From: Negaprion brevirostris
Lineage: Eukaryota
Length of the DNA: 64,000 nt
Reading direction: 5' to 3'
Assembly: GCA_030324005.1 (NCBI GenBank)
Contig: JARDVH010000115.1
Location: forward strand, 27,820,943 to 27,884,942
Shown here: positions 34,901 to 37,900 of the stretch, one piece after another
Layout of the letters: each line of letters opens with the position of its first letter
How positions within the stretch are numbered: the stretch's first letter is position 1
Made by a program: the position numbers and the translations under genes
The notes under the pieces: model-generated
Databases searched by the model: none
What the model saw: only the letters and a program-made list of their open reading frames with translations
What the model was told of the DNA's origin: nothing

Positions 34901-37900
34901 CCGACTATAAGCATTAAACTATGAACATGGGACACGGTGTTGAACCTCTAACTCAATCACACTAAATAACCTCCCACTAGAAGCAAAACCTGCTACCACA
35001 ATTCCATGGTGACAGAATCTGTTCCTTGATGCAGAACTCAATATAAGCATAGGGGAAAGCAGTTACTACCTTTGGCCAAATCACAAAACCTACATGAAAT
35101 ATCAAGCTGACCTTGGGACTAAGCTAACAATTTATAAAGCCGTATTCTCAGCATCTTACTGTATGGCCGTGAAACAGGAAGCACTTAGCTTACTTTTCAT
35201 GGAAGGATATACTTGTATTGAGGTGGTACAGTGAACATACGCTAGCTTGCTCTCAATCAAGGAACCATTATCTATGATGAAAGACTCAGTAAATTGGGCC
35301 TATGCAGTTTAGGAGAAAGAAANNNNNNNNNNNNNNACTATCAAATAAATCGGTTGGACTTAAACCTGGTGTTGTCAGACTTTTTACTGGGAAATTTAGA
35401 ACAAAAGGGTAGAGTCTCAGGATGGAGGTCAATCATTTAGGACCAAAACAATGAGAAATTTCTACACTTGGAGGGTAGTGAATCTTCGGAACTGTCTACC
35501 CCAGAGAGTTGTGGATGCTCCATTATTTATCATCTTTAAAAACTGAGGTATAGATATTTCTGGTCTTGCCTGCTACAGGAACCATAATGAGTGGGACAGA
35601 AAATTTGGCGGACCATTTAATGTTGACCTCAAGTGGGAATTTCATGTCTTGGGCACACATGGCTGGAAAATTCCACCCTTGAACTCAATTGAGATATGGA
35701 GAGTGCACATGCAAATGGAGTTGAGGAAAATGATCAGCCATAAAAATTGTACTGAATAGCAGAGCATGTTTAAGAGGTCACATGGTCTACTCCTGTAACT
35801 ATGTTACTCACCTGTGCAATAGCCCACTTCACCATTGGACCACAAGCCAAAGATGCTCTGTTGACTATTTCGTAGTTGTAGCTTGGATTGGACATGTAGT
35901 TTTTCTTCATCTTCTCGCGAATAACATCACTGATGAATAAAAATGAACAATGTTAATGCAACTGCCCTCTTGAAATTTTAGGGACGGAAATTTATCAGTG
36001 TGTTAGAGCGCTAGTTAAAAATTAGGTGGTGCATATCAATGAAGAGCTGCAACACAGTCAAAATGCAAGATAAATGTGATTTTTAAAATAAAAATAATGA
36101 ATACCTTAATTCTTCAGTATTAAAGTTGACTATGCTGGTGATGAAATTATCTCTGATAATAACTTGTCTGATCTTTTTCCAGTCATTTGTCTCCTCACCC
36201 AGCAGGAGACAGATTGATTCTAAAGCGAGTTTTACTGCAGCAGGTGGATTGGCCATGGCTCTCACTTCAACAAGATGCTGCTTCTTTATAGAGCTCACAG
36301 CTAATAGAGGGGTGAAAAGAAAGGGGCCATAAATGGACATGCAAAAGGATAAGGGTGTATACAGCCACTGGGATTTGAAAGGAAATCTTTTACTTGAAGA
36401 CCAGCAGTACATTTTGTCACCCAAACAGCAAATTTCTTTGGTAATAAATGCTATGCCTAAATCTTTTAAAATTCAATTCAATTATTAATTGCTTTGGTAG
36501 TTTTTCAGCTTTAAGCTTTGGCTGGTCTTCTGGGCAATTTCCTTCTAACCCAGCAACTGCATGCACCCCATTATTCACCTGATTTCGTCAGCTGAAAAAT
36601 TTACTATGGTCGGAATGAAGTTTTCCCTCATAATGATCGATCGGATTTGTTTCCAGTCAGTTGTACTTTCGCCCAGGAGAAGACAGATTGACTCGAGCGC
36701 TAGCTTCACTGCACCTGGCGGATTAGCCATTGAACGAACCTCTACCAAGTGCTGCTTCTTGATCGATTTTACAGCTAATCAGACCAGCACCGTAGGCCAC
36801 AGTGCAAATAAACAGTAAGAGAAAGTGAAGATTAGAGAAGAAGAAAATCGAGAGATAAACACCACACAGAAAAGATCAGTTATTCAGTTGTTTAAAAAGG
36901 TAGAAAATTAATAGGATTATAGTTCCAAAAAATATAAACTAAATAAAATGTTACTACAGATAGCAATTCAGCATAGTAGATAAATTTCATTAAAAGATAT
37001 ATTTTATAGAAAAAGCTCAATTCAAAACACATCTAACCATTCTGAGCCTCAATAACAGCAGGCTCTACCATGTCCAGATCTTCCTTTACTTTCATCTGTT
37101 TGTCAGCAATAATTTCCTGTTGCTTGTGAAGCTGCTCCTGAATTTCTTGACTCATAACCTATCAAAGATAGTGAAAATGTCTCATTTGATCAGACTTTGC
37201 TCTGAGCCCAAAATTTTCATTCCAAATGAAGAGTTCTTAAGCTAAATTACCTTTTTCTTTTCAGCTTCTTGTTGATCCTTCACCATTTTCTTCAACTTAT
37301 CATTGGCTGCTGCATTTTTAACCTCCAATTCTTGGCTCTTAATTCTCAGATCACGCCGCAATTCTTCAACCTGAAATGAGTGAAATTTTTTTTTTTTAAA
37401 AAATAGCAAGCGTTTATCATGACATTTCCATTGCAAGTCAATCAGAGCCACCTTGCATTAGTATCCAGGTCTACATTTACATGGAGCAAAAGCTGTTAAC
37501 ATTCTTTGGTTTACTGGTAAAAGAAAATATTTTTACACATTAACAAATAAATGAACACTAGAAAAATAGGATATCCTTGAAAAAAAGGGTGGCCAAAGGT
37601 AAGAGAAAAAATCCATATTGGATTTACAAAAATGTAAGATGTTTAGTAAGGTTTTCTGCCATTTCTGTGCTTAATACAGGTAGCGGTATAGATGGAGAAA
37701 CCAACCACCATTTGGAGCATTAGCCCTTGAGGCCTCAATGATACTGGAGCCTTAGATACTACAAGACATGAGCTGCCATACCAAAGCGGAATTTCATTTC
37801 ATTCAATCTTGCACATACATTAACGTCTCAAGCCAATATAGCGTACAAGTCTAATGTGAAGATCTCAAAGGATTGGTTCAGATGAAAACAGTGAACTTGC

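Follow-up and report, generated by a model that had tools for sequence, protein, structure and literature searches.

A mutually exclusive exon pair in the microtubule-binding domain of Negaprion brevirostris DYNC1H1, separated by an intron with a predicted stem and a candidate RBFOX silencer

The window analysed here was a stretch of 64,000 nucleotides of the Negaprion brevirostris genome (assembly GCA_030324005.1, contig JARDVH010000115.1, positions 27,820,943 to 27,884,942). A tblastn search identified the gene on its minus strand as DYNC1H1, encoding the cytoplasmic dynein-1 heavy chain, with its middle and 3′ part lying within the window. Two exons of the same size, A and B, were found between two constitutive exons, arranged as follows:

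37038..37158, minus strand: constitutive DYNC1H1 exon preceding the pair and encoding stalk CC1 (RNA joints 37038-36774 and 37038-36300; tblastn)
36775..37037, minus strand: 263-nt intron before exon A (sequence scan; function putative)
36579..36774, minus strand: exon A, 196 nt (sequence comparison; spliced in runs X9, X16 and X17)
36301..36578, minus strand: intron between exons A and B, 278 nt, GT...AG (sequence; retained-intron contig in X9)
36105..36300, minus strand: exon B, 196 nt, duplicate of exon A (sequence comparison; spliced in X9, X17 and X19)
35812..35929, minus strand: constitutive exon following the pair and encoding the second half of the microtubule-binding domain (joints 36579-35929 and 36105-35929; sequence)

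Exons A and B encoded the front of the microtubule-binding domain, from helix 1 to the H4-H5 loop. They had the same length of 196 nt and identical split codons, with 70% nucleotide identity and 48 of 64 residues in common, and are homologous exons equal in length and phase, as tandem duplicates are. Exon A was the mammal-like version, identical to human residues 3296-3359 at 62 of 64 positions. In exon B, 16 of the 64 residues were altered (K3297S, S3331E, Q3337K and S3340Q among them), and K3336, R3339 and R3344 were retained. The microtubule interface has been assigned to H2, H3, H4 and H6, with H1 as the moving helix (PMC6629372), and the H2-H3 loop and H3 have been placed at residues 3328-3334 and 3335-3341 (PMC13191692). 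K3297S, S3331E and Q3337K, the charged-residue changes of version B, mapped to helix 1, the H2-H3 loop and helix 3. A 681-nt query holding the exon pair matched only itself in the 2.69-Gb genome, in a search that skips very common words.

Exon B of Negaprion brevirostris was 86-89% identical to its teleost counterparts. The B-type exon was found in named proteins of Poecilia, Larimichthys, Coryphaenoides and the frog Ranitomeya, and B-type sequences are already present in gene models; in the teleost-like read-through ORFs P0003 and P0004 it stood in tandem with A. By these comparisons exon B is old. The named bird and turtle matches were A-type, and loss of exon B in amniotes is suggested rather than concluded because the searches spanned proteins of up to 2,000 residues. 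The deep forks of a 65-column tree of 36 exon peptides did not separate one ancient duplication from several independent ones, nor could this tree place arthropod-like tandem copies relative to the origin of A and B. Such copies, with the same boundaries and 196 or 199 nt long, were seen in the arthropod-like metagenome loci L014:291-900, L039/L040/L041 and L046:578-2161. The protein P0006 also read through two exon copies.

Exon use was read from RNA contigs of four runs guessed to be RNA (X9, X16, X17 and X19; four of the six RNA-guessed runs listed), which represented four studies and four related organisms. Spliced joints were recovered from all four runs, which carried no tissue or library record. 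The joints were of four GT-AG types, from the upstream exon to A, from A to the downstream exon, from the upstream exon to B and from B to the downstream exon, the 37038..37158 exon's 5′ splice site being joined to either A or B. A-type joints were present in three of the four runs and B-type joints in three of the four: X16 had only A, X19 had only B, and X9 and X17 had both, and A/B use thus differed between the four RNA samples. An A-to-B joint or a double skip was found in none of the four runs, whose contigs from relatives would miss rare or decayed forms. Translation showed that transcripts with both exons or with neither reached a stop within about 10 codons, so decay could hide such forms; the premature stop on double inclusion or skipping would back up exclusivity through frameshift and decay. 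Frameshift and decay alone can explain the missing A-to-B joint. In the joints recovered, each exon was joined to both flanking exons, never to the other, and the two were never skipped together. By these results A and B form a genuine mutually exclusive pair within the microtubule-binding domain of dynein-1, which supports part of the preliminary description.

The same description had placed two UGCAUG motifs in the 278-nt intron, one just after exon A and one shortly before exon B, and both were confirmed in the sequence (intron positions are numbered + from the donor of exon A and - towards the acceptor of exon B):

36560..36565, minus strand: UGCAUG site 1, intron +14..+19, inside the 5′ arm of a predicted stem, five of six bases predicted paired (sequence, folding)
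36338..36343, minus strand: UGCAUG site 2, -43..-38 (= +236..+241), predicted open, adjoining the exon B candidate branch points and pyrimidine tract (sequence, folding; compatible motif in P0055 at -37 and P0015 at -44)

The intron after exon B was free of UGCAUG, as had been claimed; neither TGCATG nor GCATG occurred in its 175 nt, in the 263-nt intron before A or in the two exons. (U)GCAUG lay in the proximal flanking intron, as it does at RBFOX-regulated exons, and the positional rule that RBFOX activates from downstream and represses from upstream, on which the preliminary description relied, is in print (PMC11874969). The other 46 DYNC1H1 introns of the window, approximately delimited, held 15 TGCATG in 40,424 nt, or 0.10 expected per 278 nt, compared with the 0.07 given before. 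The probability of two or more TGCATG in 278 nt was 0.005 by the gene's introns, a value to be read with a motif chosen after the fact, and 0.007 when the intron was shuffled by dinucleotides. The other 46 introns had one TGCATG in 5,304 nt of sequence lying no more than 60 nt from a splice site. In the A-B intron itself, 23 different hexamers were present twice, and the whole window showed no enrichment of TGCATG (50 found, 54 expected). Several further features of splice-site flanks were observed. In eight loci (L014:900, L027:1196, L039:3195, L040:1130, L041:3195, L042:634, L045:634 and L046:2161), the donor after the downstream copy read GTAAGCATG, with GCAUG overlapping the 5′ splice site; L039 also had TGCATG at -56 before the downstream copy, and L046 had it at +46 after the first copy. 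Of 46 exon ends examined, 11 were followed by GCATG within 60 nt. In the window, the acceptor of exon A was preceded at 36775-36940 by 164 nt that were rich in pyrimidines and free of AG, with several UCUU/CUCU motifs and no GCAUG, which suggests a distant branch point and PTB-type control.

Folding of the intron predicted a long-range stem, which the preliminary description had missed and which was formed by two arms:

36521..36569, minus strand: 5′ arm, intron +10..+58 (pair probabilities mostly 0.9-1.0)
36352..36405, minus strand: 3′ arm, +174..+227 (-105..-52) (folding; arm-like sequence in the back-translated flanks of P0055 and P0015)

The predicted stem of 40 bp (7 G.U) consisted of helices of 6+14, 10 and 10 bp, and its 3′ arm covered the last upstream AG, at -69. 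Pair probabilities were mostly 0.9-1.0 both for the intron alone and in a 1,161-nt context. The fold had a z of -3.26, with one of 200 shuffles folding equally well, and a z of -4.0 in a gene-wide comparison in which three of 111 other intronic windows of the gene reached z <= -3. The arm duplex was calculated at -59 kcal/mol, against -21.5 +/- 3.8 kcal/mol for 1,000 shuffles (best -35.8), and the best alternative partners of the arms elsewhere in the gene (-44.9 and -41.2) were worse by at least 14 kcal/mol. The predicted pairing was stable beyond chance, as is expected of exclusive exons controlled by RNA structure, and the stem probably forms. No long inverted repeat matching the arms was found in 35800-37400, and no Rfam match at E <= 1 in 35800-37300. 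Docking/selector pairing was rejected, no competing selector having been found and each arm having the other as its best partner in the gene. An origin of the stem from a repeat or foldback transposon was likewise rejected on the self-match of the 681-nt query, very common words being skipped. Hairpins predicted within the loop (+63..+170) were discarded because substitutions and indels listed for the relatives break them.

The two UGCAUG motifs differed in their predicted accessibility. Site 1 lay in the outer, predicted 20-bp helix, and opening it would cost 10.2 kcal/mol, more than at any of 15 further TGCATG sites that were tested on the sense strand of the gene (1.8-8.6 kcal/mol). Site 2, at 0.8-1.5 kcal/mol, was the most open TGCATG tested in the gene. 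On nascent RNA, the calculated cost of opening site 1 was 0.7-4.8 kcal/mol until the transcript had reached +200, and 10.2 kcal/mol after +230. RBFOX is tabulated as a binder of single-stranded RNA or stem-loops (PMC7404189). A mainly structural role for site 1 is favoured by these calculations, with less assurance than the stem itself.

To describe variation in close relatives, the window was compared with four DNA runs (4 of the 20 holding the locus) and two intron-holding RNA contigs. At least 15 intron positions were variable; among those listed, 13 were in the 115-nt loop, two in the 103-nt arm span and none in the 60 nt at the ends. One of the two listed arm-span variants was unpaired and the other changed a G.U pair to A-U. 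The difference between loop and arms gave a Fisher p of 0.007 on the 15 positions listed, beyond which there were 25 substitution entries, by tally unique to X2 or X13, and five indel entries. No two-sided compensatory change was found among the listed differences of these relatives, which are about 98% identical. Proteins bound at the intron edges would likewise keep them conserved, an alternative to constraint by the stem. Both UGCAUG motifs were unchanged in X6 and X9, the runs with all substitutions listed over the motifs, and conservation at about 98% identity is weak evidence. In the intron after exon B, the first 68 nt behind the weak donor (36037-36104) showed no difference among those listed for the four DNA runs, whereas the rest of that intron varied; 36037-36104 is a possible regulatory element.

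Distant vertebrates were read through ORFs running into the intron, the flanks of which were back-translated. After exon A, TGCATG was allowed at +1..+30 in one of 24 read-throughs (P0019, at +16), many of which probably came from animals without exon B. Site 1 was excluded in the B-carrying P0003 and P0004, as it was in P0013 and P0024, which have flanks similar to the 5′ arm; for this likeness P0024 barely exceeded its shuffles and P0013 did not. The claim that site 1 switches exon A on was poorly supported by this pattern together with the predicted burial of the site. Before exon B, 12 of the 15 flanks spanned -50..-30, and TGCATG was allowed in two of the 12. These were both of the flanks that were not teleost-like, P0055 (-37, through a Cys-Met pair) and P0015 (-44), against none of the 10 teleost-like flanks at -50..-30. 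The P0055 flank aligned with the 3′ arm and site 2 at a score of 31.4, compared with 17.4 +/- 3.0 for shuffled sequences, and P0015 had the arm peptide in common with it. Only P0055 was regarded as strong, because four of 33 flanks beat all 20 shuffles in the back-translation test and about 1.6 would be expected to do so by chance. The B-type exon of P0055 carried one inserted residue and several unusual changes, and may be decaying in that lineage. Cross-species complementarity of back-translated 5′ and 3′ arms was no better than in shuffles in nine of 10 pairs; the one complementary pair (1 of 100 shuffles, 1 of 10 pairs) involved P0019. Teleost-like introns of 116-170 nt kept the exon pair without site 2, and they showed no detectable homology to the arms. 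In the one teleost-like DNA locus, L002, the 146 nt before the B acceptor contained no GCATG and no AG, and this tract, 81% pyrimidine, is the sequence mark of a distant branch point. A vertebrate locus with the whole A-B intron was not found in metagenome contigs (L002 and L018 stop short), prokaryote genomes or viral contigs. From the pattern of compatible flanks in distant vertebrates, an old origin outside teleosts is probable for site 2 and the 3′ arm, and improbable for site 1.

Exons A and B were spliced singly in the RNA of relatives, and the reading we tentatively prefer, at just under an even chance, is that the predicted 40-bp stem likely aids this exclusivity, buries site 1 and leaves site 2 as a likely RBFOX repressor of exon B. 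A scan for the yUnAy pattern gave the following candidate branch points for exon B:

36346..36353, minus strand: candidate branch point CUUAU at the base of the stem, its A being 36350 (-50)
36330 (-30) and 36313 (-13), minus strand: further candidate branch points

Below a spacing of about 50 nt, donor and branch point are not usable together (PMC5740500, PMC7969005). The candidates lay +229, +249 and +266 from the donor, a linear distance that exceeds this limit; less than about 50 nt is reached only as an effective distance with the predicted stem formed. In that state, the unpaired nucleotides between the A donor and the B branch point would number about 11 if the latter is at -50, or 31 if it is at -30. 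Both values are below the limit, and therefore A-to-B joining would be hindered by the short effective distance, leaks being removed by nonsense-mediated decay. Hindrance by the stem is possible and somewhat doubtful, and splicing can also be promoted by stems that span donor and branch point (PMC7404189). The stem would achieve by folding what the short teleost intron likely achieves by a distant branch point, with decay as a backup. For site 2, RBFOX bound upstream is known to repress exons (PMC11874969), and RBFOX at -43 would block assembly at the exon B acceptor. In RBFOX-rich cells exon A would then be favoured through the shutting of B, not through the switching on of A. RBFOX repression acts by blocking early spliceosome assembly. 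That site 2 is a working RBFOX silencer has close to an even chance, and this half of the preliminary model may be retained as a candidate. The earlier claim that site 2 switches exon B off was consistent with the predicted accessibility and with the two distant vertebrate sequences, and it was countered by teleost-like sequences that keep exon B without the site.

The alternative that survived best, although we consider it rather unlikely, is that the hexamers are incidental, that exclusivity comes from frameshift and decay with or without the stem, and that the A/B ratio is set by, for example, PTB-type proteins before A or the weak donor of B. It would account for the teleost-like sequences in which both exons are kept without site 2, it is consistent with the long AG-free, UCUU/CUCU-rich acceptor region of exon A and with the number of hexamers occurring twice in the intron, and in 60% of human exclusive clusters the lengths are not multiples of three (PMC5740500). 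Against incidental hexamers, two distant sequences with flanks that align to the intron allowed site 2 at almost the same position, and site 2 was the most open TGCATG tested and belongs to a motif that was rare at other intron edges. An improbable alternative is a kinetic switch, a competition between protein and structure in which RBFOX would bind site 1 on the nascent transcript ahead of synthesis of the 3′ arm, keep the outer helix from forming and assist the A donor, and in which the stem would zip up without RBFOX. The low opening cost of site 1 before +200 and its rise after +230 fit such a switch, as does P0019, the single read-through that allows TGCATG at +16 and gave the sole complementary cross-species pair, but site 1 was excluded in the 5′-arm-like P0024 and P0013, and a 40-bp stem is, as general knowledge, far more stable than a single RRM contact. 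Similarly improbable is the model of the preliminary description, two independent single-stranded RBFOX sites that activate A and repress B so that A is used in neurons and muscle and B elsewhere, for although the positions fit the RBFOX map (PMC11874969), two or more motifs had a chance probability of about 0.005, A/B use differed between samples and both motifs were unchanged in X6 and X9, site 1 was predicted buried, 23 of 24 read-throughs ruled the motif out near the donor, RBFOX is tabulated on single-stranded RNA or stem-loops (PMC7404189), and conservation at 98% identity says little.

The regulatory logic proposed for the predicted stem and site 2 (stem, steric limit, decay and RBFOX) is of known kinds, and DYNC1H1 would be a case of exclusive exons backed by RNA structure and decay, with a candidate RBFOX silencer. 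A stem in FGFR2 was reportedly described by Muh et al. in 2002. In the FGFR2 IIIb/IIIc pair, functional RBFOX2 sites lie in the intervening intron, and the stem brings elements together. The likeness is that of vertebrate exclusive exons with a stem and UGCAUG in the intervening intron and decay of double inclusion, and FGFR2 is as such the direct precedent for the preliminary model. The two cases differ in that the FGFR2 stem juxtaposes elements and the RBFOX sites there are reported to be functional, whereas in DYNC1H1 one of the two candidate sites is inside the predicted stem. In the Dscam exon 17 cluster, Yue et al. reportedly found in 2013 that steric hindrance acts together with RNA secondary structure; the likeness is to a two-exon exclusive cluster with both devices. 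The insect structure is tabulated at about 15 bp over 1,000 nt (PMC6027157), against 40 predicted bp over 218 nt in DYNC1H1. OGDH exons 4a/4b and other distant-branch-point pairs are vertebrate duplicates made exclusive by a donor-branch-point distance below about 50 nt (PMC7969005). Teleost-like L002 had a signature matching this type in its 146-nt AG-free tract; unlike OGDH, the window had a linear distance of 229-249 nt to the candidate branch points, which falls under the limit only if the stem forms. Schistosoma mansoni DHC1 has a mutually exclusive exon (Pillmann et al. 2011, PMC3228551; cited in PMC5100056), which lies midway in a cytoplasmic dynein heavy chain gene and is likewise duplicated, of equal length and with split codons; the text compared (PMC3228551) gives no encoded region, regulation or vertebrate counterpart. 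With the position-dependent RBFOX splicing map (PMC11874969) DYNC1H1 shares the placement of its motifs, one UGCAUG following an exon and another preceding the next exon, in the activating and the repressing position; the downstream one of these two candidate sites was predicted to be double-stranded. A literature search covering few subscription journals found no description of the vertebrate DYNC1H1 exon pair or its regulation, and DYNC1H1 is not named in the main text of PMC5740500, whose supplements list the human clusters.

Exon B is a natural variant of the microtubule interface, 86-89% kept relative to teleosts and the sole form in one RNA sample, and can be tested directly. The usual picture of dynein-1 is of a single heavy chain that carries a single microtubule-binding domain. 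The predicted stem would be a compact vertebrate case of RNA structure between exclusive exons, and the position of site 1 within it would illustrate how base pairing can give rise to a well-placed RBFOX motif as a by-product. It is a speculative and improbable extension that fishes and amphibians use an ancient RBFOX-gated stem switch to select one of two dynein-1 microtubule surfaces, tuning grip and run length by tissue, and that mammals have apparently lost it. Elsewhere in the window, two DYNC1H1 exons (about 42105-42482) lay on the plus strand inside the minus-strand gene, adjoining an N gap at 41281-41600. A 55-nt inverted duplicate that included an exon end was present at 41226-41280 and 42440-42494, and 41226-42494 is probably a mis-oriented assembly piece, not a real inversion.
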